A stretch of 32,000 nucleotides of DNA from Promethearchaeota archaeon (GCA_030606485.1 JAUWGH010000002.1:390001-422000); one strand, 5' to 3'; counted from the stretch's first letter, positions 4,946-12,695 are shown. Numbers and translations: made by a program. The notes: generated from the letters alone by a model not told the origin.

Positions 4946-5965
4946 TTAAATATTAATTTTACTAATCGTTTGTTCAACTTGATTCTTTTCTATAAATTCC
5001 TCGAGTGTTCTTACATTATTTGGTATTCCTTCTCTAACACCAGTATCACTACATTCTAAAGCAGACATAGCGGTTGCAATTTTACATAATTTCGGTAGTG
5101 AAAAATTCATAAATAGTGAAATAATTATTCCACTCATAAACGCATCTCCAGCTCCCGTCGTATCTTCAATGGGAGTGTTAAATATATTAGTTCGAATCAT
5201 CTCATTTCCATCGAAAACAGTGGAACCATTAGCACCATCAGTTATTGAAATTAAATCAACACCCATTTTATGAATATCCATTAAAATATCAATAGTTGAT
5301 AACTTATTTGTAAATTCTGAAGCTTCCTCTTTATTGAAAGAAACCACATTGGATTTGCTAATTAATTTTTTTGCCCATTGAGGATTATTTTTAATTATTG
5401 ACATACTGGGTGCGGCAAAAACTTTTTTTCCAGCATTTTTAGTTAAATCAATTGCTTTATCTATAGCCTTACATCCACTTTCTGAAGTTAATGAAGTCCA
5501 AGCGAAGCCATCTATGTCTTTAAATATTTCTTCCTTCACATTTGTTGGAGTTATTAAATTGTTTGCGCCTTTGTACGCCAAGATACTTCGATCTCGTCCC
5601 CATTCGGTTTTTAGAATTAATGAAAAGGCAGTAGAATCCTCATCCGTTTGAATAACATTACTTACATCAACATTTCTCTTTTTCAAATCATCAAGACATA
5701 TGGAAGCTGAAAAGTCCTCACCTATAACTCCGATATATATACCCTTCATGCCGATCATTGATAAATCAGCAGCAATATTTGTTGCAGAACCTCCAGGAAC
5801 AAATTTGATATTTTCAACATTCAATTTGCGCGAATATTCAATGGCAGTATATTTTTTGATAACTTCTTTTTCAAATAATTCAAATCTTAAGATATCTTTT
5901 ATTTGAATGATACAATCGAGTGTGCAACTGCCAATTGTTACAATTTTTAAATCAGATAAGTTAAT
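4946..5965 (-). CDS. PfkB/ribokinase-family carbohydrate kinase (339 aa, apparent ATT start)
   Basis: GGSATN and DTTGAGDAF signatures. The frame extends above the track start to include the N-terminal IVTIGSCTLD motif; ATT at 5965 lies 6 nt after a GGTGA SD. Confidence 0.92.
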   Translation of the reverse strand: MNLSDLKIVTIGSCTLDCIIQIKDILRFELFEKEVIKKYTAIEYSRKLNVENIKFVPGGSATNIAADLSMIGMKGIYIGVIGEDFSASICLDDLKKRNVDVSNVIQTDEDSTAFSLILKTEWGRDRSILAYKGANNLITPTNVKEEIFKDIDGFAWTSLTSESGCKAIDKAIDLTKNAGKKVFAAPSMSIIKNNPQWAKKLISKSNVVSFNKEEASEFTNKLSTIDILMDIHKMGVDLISITDGANGSTVFDGNEMIRTNIFNTPIEDTTGAGDAFMSGIIISLFMNFSLPKLCKIATAMSALECSDTGVREGIPNNVRTLEEFIEKNQVEQTISKINI

Positions 5966-6110
5966 ATTTTCTCACCTATTTTTATTTGGAATAGTAAACA
6001 GTCATAAAAATCAGATTTAAGTTTAAAGCTAAATTTTTTAAATTTAAATTTTGTTAAAAAGGCAAAAAAAAAATATTTAGATTCTATTTCTGTACTGCAC
6101 ATCGGACAAA
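5951..6110. repeat. 160-bp direct repeat, copy A
   Basis: 156/160 identical to 7683-7842; contains the zinc-finger gene 3' end, the intergenic spacer and the pfkB start. Confidence 0.95.
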
Positions 6111-6293
6111 AAGTTTACTTATGTAAAAACATAATAATCCAGCAATCATTGATCCAATAATTCCCATGAGCCCTCCTATAAACCAAACCCAAATCATTCC
6201 TGTTGCAATAAGAATAATCTCAGAAGGTATGGGAATTAAAAGACCTTGTATTGCCATAATCGTTAAAAATAGAAAAATTCCAATAATTCCCAA
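6111..6293 (-). pseudogene. Internal fragment of a DedA/TVP38/TMEM64-family membrane protein
   Basis: AIQGLLIPIPSEIILIATGMIW...GSMIAGLLCFYISK resembles the DedA core; truncated at the repeat boundary. Confidence 0.7.
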
Positions 6294-6699: not shown

Positions 6700-7428
6700 C
6701 TAAATCTTTCCAATAATAGCTAAGTAAAGAGCAATTTCATATTCACCATCGATATTGATAAGGTCATCTAGTTCTTTTTGATTATAAGCGACAATTGCAC
6801 AAGTACCAGCATCAATTGCACTACAAGCAAGATAAAGGTTTTGGCAGATATGTCCAACACCAATTAAGATATCTTTAAGAGAATCATCTCCATATCTCCA
6901 TTCTGTTCTATAGGGTCTACAACTCCAGATAAAAACAACAGCAGCAGTACCTATAAAGGCTTGTCGATTACAAACTTCTACGATCTTTGACGGAAACTCT
7001 GGTTCATTAGTATTTAATGTCAATAGTTTATGTTCTATAGCTAAATAACGGTATAATCCGGGGGGTATTTCGTTTACACGATTAATTATTAAGTATGTTT
7101 CATATGGATGCATAGCTCCTCCAGAAGGAACAGTTCGTAATGTTACGAGCCCCCCACGATCAAGTTTCTTTACTCCTTGTGTTGTCCAGAGCAAAAAAGA
7201 TAATTCTTCTATTGTTAATGGTGATTTAAGATAATTTCGATGACTTTCTCGATTATTAATTGCCTTAATTAAAGAAATATTACCTAATTTAATATTCTCA
7301 GGTACTACTAGATCAATTAATTTAGCATCTTTAGGATAGGGCTTCTGGATAGGAGGAATGGGTAAGCCTTTCATTTGATCTGTTTCATCTTCTAAAATTG
7401 GATTTTTAAGATATTTACGATATTCCAT
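6700..7428 (-). CDS. SagB/ThcOx-family nitroreductase-like dehydrogenase
   Basis: RESHRNY, LRTVPSGGAMHPYETY and GHICQNLYLACSAIDAGTCA motifs. Confidence 0.9.
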   Translation of the reverse strand: MEYRKYLKNPILEDETDQMKGLPIPPIQKPYPKDAKLIDLVVPENIKLGNISLIKAINNRESHRNYLKSPLTIEELSFLLWTTQGVKKLDRGGLVTLRTVPSGGAMHPYETYLIINRVNEIPPGLYRYLAIEHKLLTLNTNEPEFPSKIVEVCNRQAFIGTAAVVFIWSCRPYRTEWRYGDDSLKDILIGVGHICQNLYLACSAIDAGTCAIVAYNQKELDDLINIDGEYEIALYLAIIGKI

Positions 7429-7682: not shown

Positions 7683-7842
7683 ATCAGATAAGTTAATGTT
7701 TTCTCACCTATTTTTATTTGGAATAGTAAATAGTCATAAAAATCAGATTTAAGTTTAAAGCTAAATTTTTTAAATTTAAATTTTGTTAAAAAGGCAAAAA
7801 AAAATTATTTAGATTCTATTTCTGTACCGCACATCGGACAAA
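7683..7842. repeat. 160-bp direct repeat, copy B
   Basis: 156/160 identical to 5951-6110; carries the functional stop of 7805..8194. Confidence 0.95.
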
Positions 7843-8194
7843 TAGTTATTCCTTTTTTAATCTCTCCTCCGCAAAAACGACAATAGAGTATTTTTTCACT
7901 ATATACTACGGGTGCTTTTGGGAGTTTTGTAGTTTGAGACACACTCTGAGCGCGTTTCCAATTAGGTGGATAACTAAGAATTCTCGTAGTCTTGATGGTT
8001 TTTTGATTACATCTATCACAACGTCCTCTTTTTAGATTTCTACTACAAGAATTGCAAATAACTCTCTCACAAGAGGGACATAAGCGAATTTCAACCCATG
8101 GATTTTTTTTTGCAATATCACGTCCACAAATATCACATGGCAGTGGGGTTTTCGGTTCTTTATTAACCTTAAAAAATTTTTTTATGAAAGACAT
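7805..8194 (-). CDS. Zinc-finger protein: N-terminal 8-Cys domain (FYVE-like spacing) plus C-terminal zinc ribbon
   Basis: C-x2-C-x15-C-x2-C-x4-C-x2-C-x8-C-x2-C, then CRFC-x10-CPMC; starts 21 nt after the ESCRT-III stop on the same strand. Confidence 0.8.
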   Translation of the reverse strand: MSFIKKFFKVNKEPKTPLPCDICGRDIAKKNPWVEIRLCPSCERVICNSCSRNLKRGRCDRCNQKTIKTTRILSYPPNWKRAQSVSQTTKLPKAPVVYSEKILYCRFCGGEIKKGITICPMCGTEIESK

Positions 8195-8215
8195 TTTAAT
8201 ATTTTTAATTACATT

Positions 8216-8863
8216 TTAGTCGTCAGATTCTTTCAATTCTTTAAGCTCATTTTCTAAATCTTTAATTCTTTGATCCCCGCCCACTGTAGGGAGTTGTATT
8301 CCTGTTTCAACCGAAATTTCAGCATCAATTTCTCCTAATACATTCATAACATCTTCATTCGAAACACTTGTGTCAACATTGATATTTTCAATTCCATCTG
8401 CAGTAATTTCCTCAGTAACTTGAAAATCTTCGATTCCTATATCAATGTCTTTGATTGTTTCGGTTATTTCAGGAATAGATATCTGTGATTTTAATCCTGA
8501 AACGGAACCAGCTATTGCTTTCATAATTCCAGCAACATCTTTAATTGCGGAGGCTTGTTCTAACTTAAATTGCAATCCTTCAAGATTTAATTTAAAGGTT
8601 GAAATTCCTTTTGACCATTTTTTAAATTGTAAATAACCCCGGGCATGAACTTCAGCACCTTTCATATCTCCTTCTTTTCGAAATTTAACAGCTTTAGTTC
8701 TTGCTTGTTTTGCTTTCGCTTCAAGTTTTTTTGCTTGTCTCTCTAAGCGTTTGTTAAAGATTTTAAGTTTAACGGTAACGGATCGAACATCTCGATCTTT
8801 TGATCTACCACCACTTAACCAACCACTTACGTCTTTTAGAAAACCCAAAATGATTCTACTCAA
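8216..8863 (-). CDS. ESCRT-III protein, Vps2/24/46-like (Snf7 family)
   Basis: Helical Snf7-type core (basic N-terminal half, acidic C-terminal half), amphipathic N-terminus and MIM1-like tail (RIKDLENELKELKE); divergent from Vps4. Confidence 0.88.
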   Translation of the reverse strand: MSRIILGFLKDVSGWLSGGRSKDRDVRSVTVKLKIFNKRLERQAKKLEAKAKQARTKAVKFRKEGDMKGAEVHARGYLQFKKWSKGISTFKLNLEGLQFKLEQASAIKDVAGIMKAIAGSVSGLKSQISIPEITETIKDIDIGIEDFQVTEEITADGIENINVDTSVSNEDVMNVLGEIDAEISVETGIQLPTVGGDQRIKDLENELKELKESDD

Positions 8864-8918
8864 TTATTTTAAAATTAATCTTCTTAAAATTACTTAAGAA
8901 ATAAATATTTATTTTAAT

Positions 8919-9008: not shown

Positions 9009-10226
9009 ATGAGCTCTTTAGATTCTAAGTTGTTTTCTTTTGCAATGAAAGAAGCAAAAGAAGCAGTTGAGTATGATAAAAAGGCTGAATATCAAAAAGC
9101 CATTAATAAATATAGTAGAGCAGCTGAAATATTAATTCAATTTGCAAAATACAATAAAAATCCAAGTTTGCAAAAACTATGCCAAGAAAAAATTCACGAA
9201 TATGTCTCCCGTGCTAAGACATTAAAAAGAAGTTTGAAACCTTATAAAAAAGGAAGGATTTCAACTCGTAAGAGAGTAACTAAAAAGGGAAAAGATTCAG
9301 AAGAAATCGAAGAAGAGGAGATTTTAACCAAAGAGCAACAAGAACTTAGAGAAGTTATTTCAGGAACAATCATCACCGAATTACCTGATATTCGATGGGA
9401 CGATATTGCAGGATTAGTGGAATGTAAACAATCTCTTAGAGAAGCAATAGTTTTGCCTATAATGAGACCAGAATTATTTACCGGTGCTAGAAAGCCATGG
9501 TCTGGTATTCTTTTATATGGTCCTCCAGGTTGCGGAAAAACTCTCCTTGCTCAAGCGGCAGCAACAGAATGCGATGCAACTTTTTTTAGCGCATCAGCAG
9601 CTGAATTATTATCAAAATGGCTTGGGGAAAGTGAGAAATTAATTAGCTCATTATTTAAATTAGCAAGACTTGAAGCACCAAGCATCATATTTTTTGATGA
9701 AATTGATTCTATTACGACTTCGAGGGGATATGGATCGGAGAGTGGTGGAGAGAGAAGAATCAAAACTCAATTATTAGGTGAAATTCAAGGTCTTAAATCA
9801 AGGACTGAAAAATTACTTTTAATTTTAGGTGCGACAAATCGACCTTGGGATATTGATACAGCAATGTTGCGAAGATTTGAGAAAAAAATTTATGTCCCTC
9901 TCCCAGACGAAGAAGCGAGAGAAGTGATTTTTAAAATACATACAGCTGGGGTAAATCTCTCACTTACAGATAATGATTTTAGAGAACTTGGAGAAAAAAC
10001 TGCGGGATATTCTGGATCTGATATTGCAAATGTTTGTAGAGAAGTGATTATGAGACCGATAAGAGAGTTAGATATGAGTGGAAAAATAACTGCCGAAGCA
10101 GAGGAAATTATCGTTAGAGATGTAAATATAGAAGATTTTAACAAAACACTTAAAAAAATAAAACCAATTGTATCTGAAAAAGAAATAAAGAGATACCATG
10201 AGTGGTTTGAACAATTTGGTGAATGA
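9009..10226 (+). CDS. vps4: Vps4-like AAA+ ATPase with N-terminal MIT domain
   Basis: MIT-like helices (AVEYDKKAEYQKAINKYSRAAEIL), GPPGCGKT Walker A, IIFFDEID Walker B, GATNRPWDID...RRFEK and GYSGSDI. Confidence 0.93.
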   Translation: MSSLDSKLFSFAMKEAKEAVEYDKKAEYQKAINKYSRAAEILIQFAKYNKNPSLQKLCQEKIHEYVSRAKTLKRSLKPYKKGRISTRKRVTKKGKDSEEIEEEEILTKEQQELREVISGTIITELPDIRWDDIAGLVECKQSLREAIVLPIMRPELFTGARKPWSGILLYGPPGCGKTLLAQAAATECDATFFSASAAELLSKWLGESEKLISSLFKLARLEAPSIIFFDEIDSITTSRGYGSESGGERRIKTQLLGEIQGLKSRTEKLLLILGATNRPWDIDTAMLRRFEKKIYVPLPDEEAREVIFKIHTAGVNLSLTDNDFRELGEKTAGYSGSDIANVCREVIMRPIRELDMSGKITAEAEEIIVRDVNIEDFNKTLKKIKPIVSEKEIKRYHEWFEQFGE

Positions 10227-10255: not shown

Positions 10256-11137
10256 ATGGAAAGACAAAAAGCTAAAGAAGTCCCAAAAGAAGAAATTGCT
10301 GTATCAGATGAAAAAATTGAAGAACTAAGGAAAGAATTAGAAGATCTAAGAAAAAAAAAAGAAATAAAATTACAAGCAGAACAAAAAAAGGTAAAGGAAA
10401 AAGTAGAACCAACAATTTCCATCGATTTAGATGATATAGAAAAAAGATTAGATGCTATTGAAGAATTTCTTGAAGAAAAATCTCAAGCAACCGAGGTTAT
10501 AATTAAAGCAAAAGATTTGGATGAGATTGAGAAAGAACTTCAGTCTATCGAAAGCGAAATTGTAATTGAACCAAAGGTTATAGAAAAGGAATTAACTTCT
10601 TATGAAATATTAATTAAAGAGCATACATGGCTTGAAGAAGCTAGATATGAATATATGTTTTCTGCTCCAGATACAAAGAAAAATGCTAAAGATTATCAAT
10701 CTTGGTTAATTGAGTGGAGCCAAGTAATTTATGATTATGCCCGAATATCGATATTGCACGTTCTCTATATTAGAAAATTAAATGCTGAGAAACCATTTTC
10801 TAAACTACGCAATAGAGATGGCGCAATCGCTGCAATAGCTCAAAAATTAGTGGATCAAAATATTGGAGTATGGTTAAATAAAAAAAAAAAAGAAACATTA
10901 AGAATTTATTGGAAAACTTTAGATGAGTGGGCAGAAGAAATACTTAATTGGGCACGGGAAAACGGTAAATTAGAACCAATTCTAACTTTTGAAATTCGCG
11001 AGTCTGGGGAACTTTTTGCAGATTTGCCCAAAAGGGATTTAACACGAATATTTAAAAGATTAGAAAAAGAAGGCAAAGGAGAAGTAATTAAATCTGAAGA
11101 AGGAGATATTACTTTTAAAATAAATTTGAATTATTAA
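10256..11137 (+). CDS. vps25: ESCRT-II Vps25 (EAP20)-like protein with acidic helical N-terminal extension
   Basis: C-terminal tandem winged-helix pattern (QSWLIEWSQVI, YWKTLDEWAEEILNWARENG, IFKRLEKEGKG); directly after Vps4. Confidence 0.75.
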   Translation: MERQKAKEVPKEEIAVSDEKIEELRKELEDLRKKKEIKLQAEQKKVKEKVEPTISIDLDDIEKRLDAIEEFLEEKSQATEVIIKAKDLDEIEKELQSIESEIVIEPKVIEKELTSYEILIKEHTWLEEARYEYMFSAPDTKKNAKDYQSWLIEWSQVIYDYARISILHVLYIRKLNAEKPFSKLRNRDGAIAAIAQKLVDQNIGVWLNKKKKETLRIYWKTLDEWAEEILNWARENGKLEPILTFEIRESGELFADLPKRDLTRIFKRLEKEGKGEVIKSEEGDITFKINLNY

Positions 11138-11873: not shown

Positions 11874-12590
11874 CTAAGAGATCGAAGGAAAATACCACTT
11901 CTTTCCTCTTAAGTATGACTCATCTTTTTTGGCAAAACCACTGGCTTCTAAAGAATTTAATGCCCTCAATGCTCTTTCTTGAGACCATGATAATTCTGAG
12001 CATGCATCTTCTAAAGAAATAAAACCCTTTTCTGAAGCTAATGAAATTACTTTTGCCTCATCATCGGTATGTTGAATGGAGAAAAATCTAACTTCAATAA
12101 CTCCATCATCAAGCTCCCGAATATTAGGAATTACTTTCCTTTTCTTTAAAAGATACATAGCTTTAATTACATCTTCAATCTCTAAATGATTCATGAGAAT
12201 ACCTGTATTCACAATTTCAAATACGTCAGAGATCGGCATAATACCTCCAGTTTCTTCTTTTTCCATTAAAACTCTTTGGTATGCTAACATACCTAATTTT
12301 TCATGATCAATTTTTCTCTTTTTTCTTAAGACGTCTATTTCTTCAATTCTTTCAGTAATAATTCGCGAAGTAGGAATATCAAATTTCCTCTGTAGTTCTT
12401 TAATTTCATCTCTTAATTCAGGATCTAAAGCAAGAATTACTCCGTGTTTGATTGCAATTTCTCTTATTTTGTCTTTGGCAAATTCTCTTGTTTTTGCTTC
12501 TTCTTCAAGTTCTTTTTGCTTTAACTCAATGCCCTTCCTCTTCATTGCTTCTTTTAGATCAATATCATCCTCTATTTTGCGAATCCCCAT
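11874..12590 (-). CDS. vps22: ESCRT-II Vps22 (EAP30)/Vps36-like winged-helix protein
   Basis: GGIMPISDV, LSWSQERALRALNSLEASG and terminal WYFPSI; ATG 12590 follows a GGAG SD (track start 12617). Confidence 0.8.
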   Translation of the reverse strand: MGIRKIEDDIDLKEAMKRKGIELKQKELEEEAKTREFAKDKIREIAIKHGVILALDPELRDEIKELQRKFDIPTSRIITERIEEIDVLRKKRKIDHEKLGMLAYQRVLMEKEETGGIMPISDVFEIVNTGILMNHLEIEDVIKAMYLLKKRKVIPNIRELDDGVIEVRFFSIQHTDDEAKVISLASEKGFISLEDACSELSWSQERALRALNSLEASGFAKKDESYLRGKKWYFPSIS

Positions 12591-12695
12591 ATAGTTCTCC
12601 GACTTTTTTATATGCACTTACTTTTATTTTTTAATATTATAATTATTAAATAATAACAAGATTATATTTTTTTTTCGCTTTATTAATTTAAGATA

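Follow-up and report, generated by a model that had tools for sequence, protein, structure and literature searches.

The 32,000-nucleotide (nt) stretch of DNA from Promethearchaeota archaeon analyzed here (GCA_030606485.1 JAUWGH010000002.1:390001-422000; hereafter the window) carries on its minus strand, at 7805-8194, a gene for a basic protein of 129 residues with three zinc sites that lies directly behind a gene for ESCRT-III. The gene is a lineage-specific accessory of one genus-level clade of Lokiarchaeia and not an ancestral ESCRT adaptor. With moderate confidence, its product is best read as a RING-like basic adaptor, scaffolded by zinc and probably co-transcribed with ESCRT-III, which would modulate ESCRT-III in this lineage. 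The initial annotation had described a FYVE-like zinc finger, possibly ancestral, as a candidate adaptor for Asgard ESCRT; what survives of it is a lineage-specific zinc protein, predicted to be cross-braced, attached to ESCRT-III, whereas the FYVE identity and the ancestry fail.

A small three-zinc protein conserved in all its cysteines

Translation of the minus strand at 7805-8194 gives an open reading frame (ORF) of 129 codons (protein P0001), with ATG at 8194 and the stop codon at 7805-7807. The N terminus reads MSFIKKFFKV, and cysteines at positions 20, 23, 39, 42, 47, 50, 59, and 62 form the pattern C-x2-C-x15-C-x2-C-x4-C-x2-C-x8-C-x2-C with RNLKRGRC at residues 52-59, all just as annotated. 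A third zinc site, missing from that annotation, was found further on (C105-x2-C108-x10-C119-x2-C122). This C-terminal region (residues 102-129; 7808-7891) combines the C-x2-C-x(~10)-C-x2-C spacing of a zinc ribbon with family-model matches, to Pfam DZR (E=9.1e-6; 26.2 bits, 1.1 bits short of the cut-off of 27.3) and Zn_Ribbon_1 (E=2.6e-3), and close homologues have precomputed PF12773 and PF13240 matches.

The protein has an isoelectric point (pI) of 9.65. It opens with 13 residues, MSFIKKFFKVNKE (8156-8194), of which F3 and F8 are invariant among close relatives (alignment A1) and which are modelled as disordered, with a predicted local distance difference test (pLDDT) score below 50. The binuclear eight-cysteine module follows (residues 20-62; 8009-8137), a predicted RING/ZZ-like cross-brace with a conserved basic NLKRGRC stretch. 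Behind it lies an aromatic-Pro-x-x-aromatic segment, Y75-P-P-N-W79 (7958-7972), in which P76 is invariant (alignments A3 and A4) and which packs onto the zinc module in the domain model (pLDDT 84). A variable linker (residues 85-101; 7892-7942), unconserved in the alignments and of low confidence in the full-length model, leads to the ribbon.

All 12 cysteines are invariant in an alignment of 12 homologues that reaches down to 22% identity, and the eight N-terminal ones are also invariant in an alignment of 16 sequences. No cysteine is lost in any of five homologue clusters at 55-95% identity, and an exhaustive HMMER search together with a profile search yielded about ten more full-length homologues at 22-35% identity. 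These distant homologues share a common layout, namely the eight-cysteine module, the aromatic-Pro-x-x-aromatic segment with its invariant proline, a variable linker, and the C-terminal ribbon. Pairwise ratios of nonsynonymous to synonymous substitution (dN/dS) are 0.17-0.25 for the zinc protein, compared with 0.02-0.10 for the adjoining ESCRT-III, which indicates purifying selection 2-9 times looser than that on ESCRT-III. Because of these ratios and the 12 invariant cysteines, the gene and its eight-cysteine pattern are real and not a product of chance. With about 15 clusters the family is very small, and it is basic throughout (pI 9.1-9.9); the eight-cysteine domain alone has a net charge of +11.

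Several short motifs were considered and dropped. The amphipathic N terminus of the initial annotation did not hold up as a membrane anchor: the hydrophobic moment of residues 1-11, taken as a helix, is matched by 12% of shuffles and is thus not significant, and the segment is missing from the distant homologues. YPPNW was rejected as an ALIX-type late-domain motif since it packs on the domain in the model, and a MIM2 reading of the linker sequence LPKAPV was dropped since that sequence is unconserved. Ubiquitin-binding NZF domains carry a Thr-Phe dipeptide after the second cysteine; the C-terminal ribbon has none and was not assigned to that class. Larger apparent homologues from the exhaustive search (P0010, P0012, P0034, P0068, P0085, and P0088) proved to be repetitive zinc-ribbon or C2H2 proteins or noise, and no informative domain fusion was found among these larger matches.

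The eight-cysteine module is predicted to be a RING/ZZ-like cross-brace

A profile built from 16 family members (alignment A4) was searched against all PDB sequences. The RING domain of RNF4 was matched with significant similarity (E=3.2e-6) in an alignment spanning all four cysteine pairs, in which pairs 1, 3, and 4 and the second cysteine of pair 2 coincide with RNF4 ligands. Next came MID1 B-box1 (5e-4), the best FYVE domain (RUFY1, 0.013), and archaeal 30S Zn-ribbon proteins (0.013-0.03). Pfam scans of the 16 members one by one gave matches that were all below threshold: Prok-RING_4 in 13 (best 6.9e-6), zf-RING_5 in nine (best 3.5e-5), the Rubicon-homology domain in 12, FYVE in eight (best 0.036), and, weakly and within the eight-cysteine region, DZR in 14. 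The Pfam ZZ model was not among the 25 families listed in these scans. In the distant homologues the last cysteine pair takes the RING-typical form CPxC.

The AlphaFold model of full-length P0001 is mediocre (pLDDT 67), and that of the isolated domain reaches 88.3 (88-92 over the core) from an underlying alignment of only 16 sequences. In the domain model a helix begins at cysteine pair 3, as at treble-clef sites, and the whole superposes at 2.0-2.2 Å on two solved crossed two-zinc domains, those of aS34 and p62 ZZ. The ribosomal protein aS34 heads the fold matches; chains of ZZ, RING, and U-box domains make up the lists with it, and the full-length model returned the same families in the same order. 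A shape search of the ESM Atlas with the domain model retrieved zf-RING_5, makorin, and Roquin RINGs at template-modelling (TM) scores of 0.52-0.61; Foldseek against the PDB retrieved RING domains with E values of at least 0.1, and no PDB match at E<=0.001 was obtained with either the full-length or the domain model. An Atlas feature search stayed at scores below 0.9 and is taken as a lead only. All fold neighbours listed for the models are crossed two-zinc treble-clef domains. FYVE chains do not occur among the best 50 matches listed in five PDB fold lists, which is not proof of a different fold.

A cross-brace in which cysteine pairs 1 and 3 would bind one zinc ion and pairs 2 and 4 the other is therefore a well-supported prediction from the models; it is a prediction and not a demonstration because the fold scores are middling. 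The predicted fold agrees with the initial annotation in being cross-braced, without independent ribbons, and its listed neighbours are of the RING, ZZ, and U-box kind. The module is here called RING/ZZ-like because the profile and the predicted fold fit a RING but the curated cut-offs, the cysteine spacing, and the E2-contact residues do not.

Compared with the RING of RNF4 (PDB 3ng2, 4ppe, 2xeu, and 4ap4) and with RINGs including Prok-RING_4 and zf-RING_5, P0001 has eight ligands in four pairs, a hydrophobic residue at C1+2 and in the helix after C6, and a predicted cross-brace in common. It differs in being all-cysteine (C4C4), in a four-residue gap between C4 and C5, in the shifted third ligand, in Asp after C7, in the missing linchpin, and in the added aromatic-Pro extension and C-terminal zinc ribbon. 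ZZ domains (p62/SQSTM1 5yp8, Nbr1, Ada2, HERC2, and KCMF1) use His as ligands in their last pair and bind N-terminal peptides through an acidic pocket, whereas P0001 is all-cysteine and strongly basic.

The defining motifs of FYVE fingers are missing

The arrangement C-x2-C...C-x2-C-x4-C-x2-C...C-x2-C of FYVE fingers is present in P0001, but it also occurs in RING, PHD, and ZZ domains and so does not discriminate. The initial annotation had itself remarked on the missing WxxD and RRHHCR motifs, and rightly: no tryptophan precedes Cys1 in P0001, the only one nearby (W33) lying after the first pair with no xxD behind it, and EIRLCPSC stands in place of R(R/K)HHCR, with no histidine there across the family. 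Nor is there an RVC before Cys7, where P0001 has RGRC and the family consensus is K-(R/K)-(G/N/D)-(K/R)-C. The loop between Cys6 and Cys7 is eight residues long in P0001 and seven to eight across the family, which leaves no room for the FYVE beta-hairpin. All 16 members score below the 27.8-bit cut-off of Pfam FYVE (PF01363), and a genome-wide scan with this model gave no match here at E<=0.01. The PI3_PI4_kinase model has no match in the genome, which is rated 100% complete, so that a phosphatidylinositol 3-phosphate (PI3P) signal to be read is not evident.

On these sequence grounds the module is not supported as a PI3P-reading FYVE finger, an identity that fails on its defining motifs. It does share with the FYVE domains of Vps27/Hrs, EEA1, and RUFY1 (PF01363) the eight cysteines, the C-x2-C-x4-C-x2-C core, the predicted cross-brace class, and basic character; it differs from them in the three motifs and in a much shorter C6-C7 loop. 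Since an archaeal FYVE/PI3P recruitment step finds no support here, it would be a mistake to cite the gene as an ESCRT-0-like element of ancestral origin.

Linkage to ESCRT-III is confined to one genus-level clade

The ESCRT-III gene (minus strand, 8216-8863; Pfam Snf7, E=4e-17) ends with its stop codon at 8216-8218, on the same strand as the zinc-protein gene, and the AT-rich spacer between that stop and the zinc-protein start (8195-8215) is 21 nt long, which bears out the distance annotated. Most likely, the true start of ESCRT-III is the in-frame TTG at 8848, giving a protein of 210 residues that begins with MGFLKD as its orthologues do (alignment A5), and not the TTG listed at 8863. The order ESCRT-III, 21-22 nt, zinc protein was found in the window, in G145, which belongs to the same genus, and at three loci from metagenomes (L001, L002, and L003), whose zinc proteins have diverged to 58-71% identity (58-86% when all these loci are taken together); every close relative with readable context keeps the 21-22-nt junction.

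When the adjacency was followed across genomes, the conservation that an ancestral adaptor would call for was not seen. Full-length matches among 400 genomes of the phylum were restricted to genus g1. Within it, G146 and G147 have the zinc protein at contig ends, and this query found nothing in G148 (69% complete). In 13 of the 16 family loci examined outside g1 (10 of 11 genera) the pfkB sugar kinase gene directly follows ESCRT-III, and in more distant Lokiarchaeia other genes do. Because L001 and L002 show the order ESCRT-III, zinc protein, pfkB, the zinc-protein gene is regarded as having been inserted, in this lineage only, into an ESCRT-III/pfkB junction that already existed. ESCRT linkage is thus not conserved across Asgard lineages, and the gene does not qualify as a core or ancestral component of Asgard ESCRT; the "ancestral FYVE-type ESCRT adaptor" of the initial annotation gives way to an accessory of one clade that lacks the FYVE motifs.

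In G146 and G147 the contigs break inside the zinc-protein gene (G146:C145 start, G146:C526 end, and G147:C36 start; L040, L071, and L041/L073), which points to microdiversity among strains or to assembly failure caused by repeats at a fast-evolving gene. The closest of the distant homologues, P0011, lies on L034, a 13-kb contig of 29% GC (JGI 3300037067), among 14 ORFs without a match in Pfam, PHROG, or their own genome; this contig may be viral, or a mobile element, with an AT-rich archaeon as host. For L034, L035, L068, and L069, the neighbouring genes gave no Pfam or PHROG match and no tblastn match in their own genome; these contexts are uninformative beyond the absence of Snf7 and the presence of a DDE transposase.

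Possible transcription across the junction

Co-transcription of the zinc protein with ESCRT-III is plausible because the short distance between the two genes is conserved and the spacer, in the window copy, has no oligo-T run. The sequencing runs used for the transcript search were served as contigs only; those from cold seeps contain 0.9 or more of the locus. One contig of 172 nt bridges the junction (8122-8293), but its library, labelled RNA-Seq, was rated as probably DNA. In the one true metatranscriptome, contigs 96-98% identical to the window cover only 8636-8910, where the ESCRT-III gene begins, together with some 60 nt ahead of its likely start, which is compatible with expression in situ but not proof of it. 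A scan for sigma-70 promoters and terminators gave nothing above shuffles, and sigma-70 models are not applicable to archaea.

E2-contact residues and ubiquitin genes

Two positions that contact E2 enzymes in RING domains, I22 (C1+2) and L54 (in the helix after C6), are hydrophobic and conserved in the zinc protein. In the ESCRT-linked clade, C7+1, a Pro in the distant homologues, is Asp, and Asn or Gly occupies C8+1 in place of an Arg or Lys linchpin; activation of an E2 is doubtful for these reasons. No ubiquitin genes occur in the 32-kb window. The same genome encodes, on another contig and far from the ESCRT locus, a UBC-type E2 (G000:C10:380617-381024; 90 bits, above the Pfam cut-off) and, far from both, a ubiquitin-like protein (C10:752621-752812; 38.7 bits).

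RING E3 genes have been described in ESCRT/ubiquitin clusters of Hel-, Hermod-, Odin-, Baldr-, and Wukongarchaeia, where their neighbours are UEV-Vps23, ubiquitin, E1, and E2 and where activity has been shown (bioRxiv 10.1101/2023.07.25.550441). P0001 resembles them as a RING-type zinc protein in an Asgard ESCRT neighbourhood, for which coupling of ESCRT to ubiquitin is plausible; it differs in following ESCRT-III, in having no ubiquitin genes within 32 kb, and in its restriction to one Lokiarchaeial genus. Prokaryotic RING-like domains are already known, as are RING E3s close to ESCRT genes of Asgard archaea; what is new is the small family and its unusual, narrow placement. Because the genome has an E2 and a ubiquitin-like gene and such E3s are documented, an E3-like role is a live sub-hypothesis.

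Proposed role and competing explanations

The protein comes from a small, fast-evolving zinc family that occurs at low frequency in AT-rich archaea of marine sediments. One copy inserted between ESCRT-III and pfkB in a single genus-level Lokiarchaeial clade and has stayed 21-22 nt behind ESCRT-III, with which it is most likely transcribed. Read as an adaptor, the protein would dock a partner protein with its RING-like face, either ESCRT-III or a component of the Vps4 pathway or the E2/ubiquitin-like system of the genome. A flexible linker joins this module and its aromatic-Pro extension to the C-terminal four-cysteine ribbon, and the basic surface and the ribbon could make a second contact, with acidic ESCRT-III tails, membrane, or nucleic acid. 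The outcome would be modulation of ESCRT-III in this lineage only. If the protein does act with ESCRT-III, it would offer a compact, expressible handle on the regulation of Asgard ESCRT-III, or on its ubiquitin-like coupling, in Lokiarchaeia and an instance of lineage-specific tinkering with machinery usually treated only as "eukaryote-like". A bolder version, to which we give little credence, is that one Lokiarchaeial genus independently brought a three-zinc protein of the RING-like kind under joint transcription with ESCRT-III. There it would serve as an adaptor or E3-like factor, coupling a ubiquitin-like system or membrane or nucleic-acid cues directly to ESCRT-III and bypassing ESCRT-I and ESCRT-II; to our knowledge, such a route has not been described in eukaryotes or in other Asgard archaea.

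Several observations weigh against the adaptor role. The linkage is confined to a clade in which overall synteny is conserved anyway, and distant homologues have non-ESCRT contexts (L034 on its 13-kb ORFan contig, L035 beside the DDE transposase, and L056). The transcript search gave no contig of clear RNA origin across the junction between ESCRT-III and the zinc protein. No Pfam RING model exceeds its curated cut-off (for P0001, Prok-RING_4 scores 12.9 and zf-RING_5 12.7 bits against 27-28), ligand 3 aligns one knuckle off that of RNF4, the residues after C7 and C8 depart from RING usage as described above, and the spacing C3-x2-C4-x4-C5 lies outside the canonical C3-x(1-3)-H/C4-x(2-3)-C5, a four-residue gap between C4 and C5 being known from atypical C4C4 RINGs. 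RNA binding would be just as compatible with the high pI and with a ribosomal protein as the best structural neighbour. A complex prediction for the zinc protein with ESCRT-III (alignments A1 and A5) scored 0.00 and counts neither for nor against binding.

The main rival, unlikely on balance though it holds a real share of the probability, is a small basic zinc protein of generic type whose target is RNA, DNA, or the ribosome; its parallels would be aS34 and the COG2888 "Zn-ribbon RNA-binding protein" of the archaeal 30S subunit. Such a protein would have come to lie at ESCRT-III by lineage-specific insertion at a recombination-prone spot and would have no ESCRT function. The charge of the family and of its eight-cysteine domain, the aS34 fold match, the weak matches to archaeal 30S Zn-ribbon RNA-binding proteins (with NCBIfam PRK14890 at E=0.06), and the unrelated contexts of distant homologues all suit this rival. 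So does the nature of the locus as a hotspot for insertions, with the 165-nt direct repeat on either side of the 1.57 kb that follows the gene, and so does pfkB as the usual successor of ESCRT-III in the other loci of the family. The rival is harder to reconcile with a tight same-strand junction that is kept while the protein diverges to 58% identity. aS34 is a 30S ribosomal protein with two zinc ions, likened by its discoverers to RING E3 domains and found only in Sulfolobales and related orders, such proteins being limited to Thermoprotei (PMC11698992). Compared with P0001, aS34 (PDB 9fhl chain a) has neither the C-terminal ribbon nor ESCRT linkage; the 28% identity stems mostly from cysteines, and the sequence match (E=0.4) is not significant. 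The 30S Zn-ribbon proteins, for their part, are not among the top fold matches listed. Lower still in probability is the proposal that the module consists of two consecutive zinc knuckles or ribbons (pairs 1 and 2, then 3 and 4) and that the RING-like model is an AlphaFold artefact. C-x2-C-x15-C-x2-C is classical zinc-ribbon spacing, DZR matches weakly in 14 of 16 members, and the model draws on few sequences; the confidence of that model over the core, its superposition on aS34 and p62 ZZ, the helix start at pair 3, and the mere four residues between pairs 2 and 3, as in RING, PHD, FYVE, and ZZ cores, argue for a cross-brace instead.

Two further explanations keep the ESCRT connection. The protein could be a genuine E3 of the RING type, recruiting the UBC-type E2 so that ESCRT-III or its cargo is ubiquitinated, comparable with the Helarchaeial RING E3 that modifies UEV-Vps23; this is a special case of the adaptor role and, taken alone, rather improbable. 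The RNF4 profile match, RING-dominated fold lists, conserved I22 and L54, the E2 and ubiquitin-like genes of the genome, and the precedent in Asgard ESCRT/ubiquitin clusters speak for it, but Asp in place of Pro at C7+1 and Asn or Gly in place of Arg or Lys at C8+1, the location of both genes on another contig, and ZZ domains, which are not E3 modules and match at least as well as RINGs, speak against it. Very improbable, and largely refuted at the level of motifs, is membrane recruitment of ESCRT by a finger of the FYVE or FYVE-like (rabphilin/Slp) type whose ligand is PI3P, some other lipid, or a small GTPase. Such a finger would account for the C-x2-C-x4-C-x2-C core, the basic run ahead of the last cysteine pair, and the sub-threshold matches to RUFY1 FYVE, Pfam FYVE, and the Rubicon-homology domain, and a basic protein could bind acidic membranes; yet all three motifs are missing, the C6-C7 loop is short, Pfam FYVE stays far under its cut-off while the RING profile matches 3-4 orders of magnitude better, no PI3_PI4_kinase match exists in the genome, and the ESCRT linkage does not extend beyond one genus.

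Neighbouring genes and related proteins

The Asgard ESCRT setting annotated at the locus was confirmed by Pfam. Divergent from ESCRT-III on the plus strand is Vps4 (9009-10226; MIT, AAA, and Vps4_C domains), followed on the same strand by a Vps25-like ESCRT-II subunit (10256-11137; ESCRT-II, E=6.7e-12) and, on the minus strand, by an EAP30 (Vps22/36-like) ESCRT-II subunit (11874-12617; EAP30, E=1.2e-11). On the other side of the zinc-protein gene lies the 165-nt direct repeat, copy A at 5951-6115 and copy B at 7683-7847, the two being 97% identical. Copy B overlaps the last 14 codons of the zinc protein, and the repeat duplicates the 3' end of the gene together with the spacer towards pfkB. 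The copies bracket an insertion of ~1.57 kb between the zinc-protein gene and pfkB that carries a nitroreductase gene (6700-7428) and that L001 and L002 do not have. DNA contigs of two metagenomes break or loop at the repeat.

Judging by their sequences, a larger and uncharacterised RING-like repertoire exists in other Lokiarchaeia. Proteins of 350-460 residues, some of them encoded as tandem pairs and one containing TPR repeats (L043 562-1629 and 1733-2848; L046; L062 253-1641), end in a C4C4 module, C-x2-C-x12-C-x2-C-x4-C-x2-C-x10-C-W-x-C, with weak matches to RING models. The genome also has a second Snf7-family ESCRT-III on a different contig from the window (G000:C11:11629-12117; L104 1429-2082). 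Convergent with this second gene is one for a protein of 417 residues (L104 2178-3431), with a low-complexity middle rich in N, Q, Y, and P, a C-terminal coiled coil, and a weak APG6_N match, which may be an ESCRT-associated factor.

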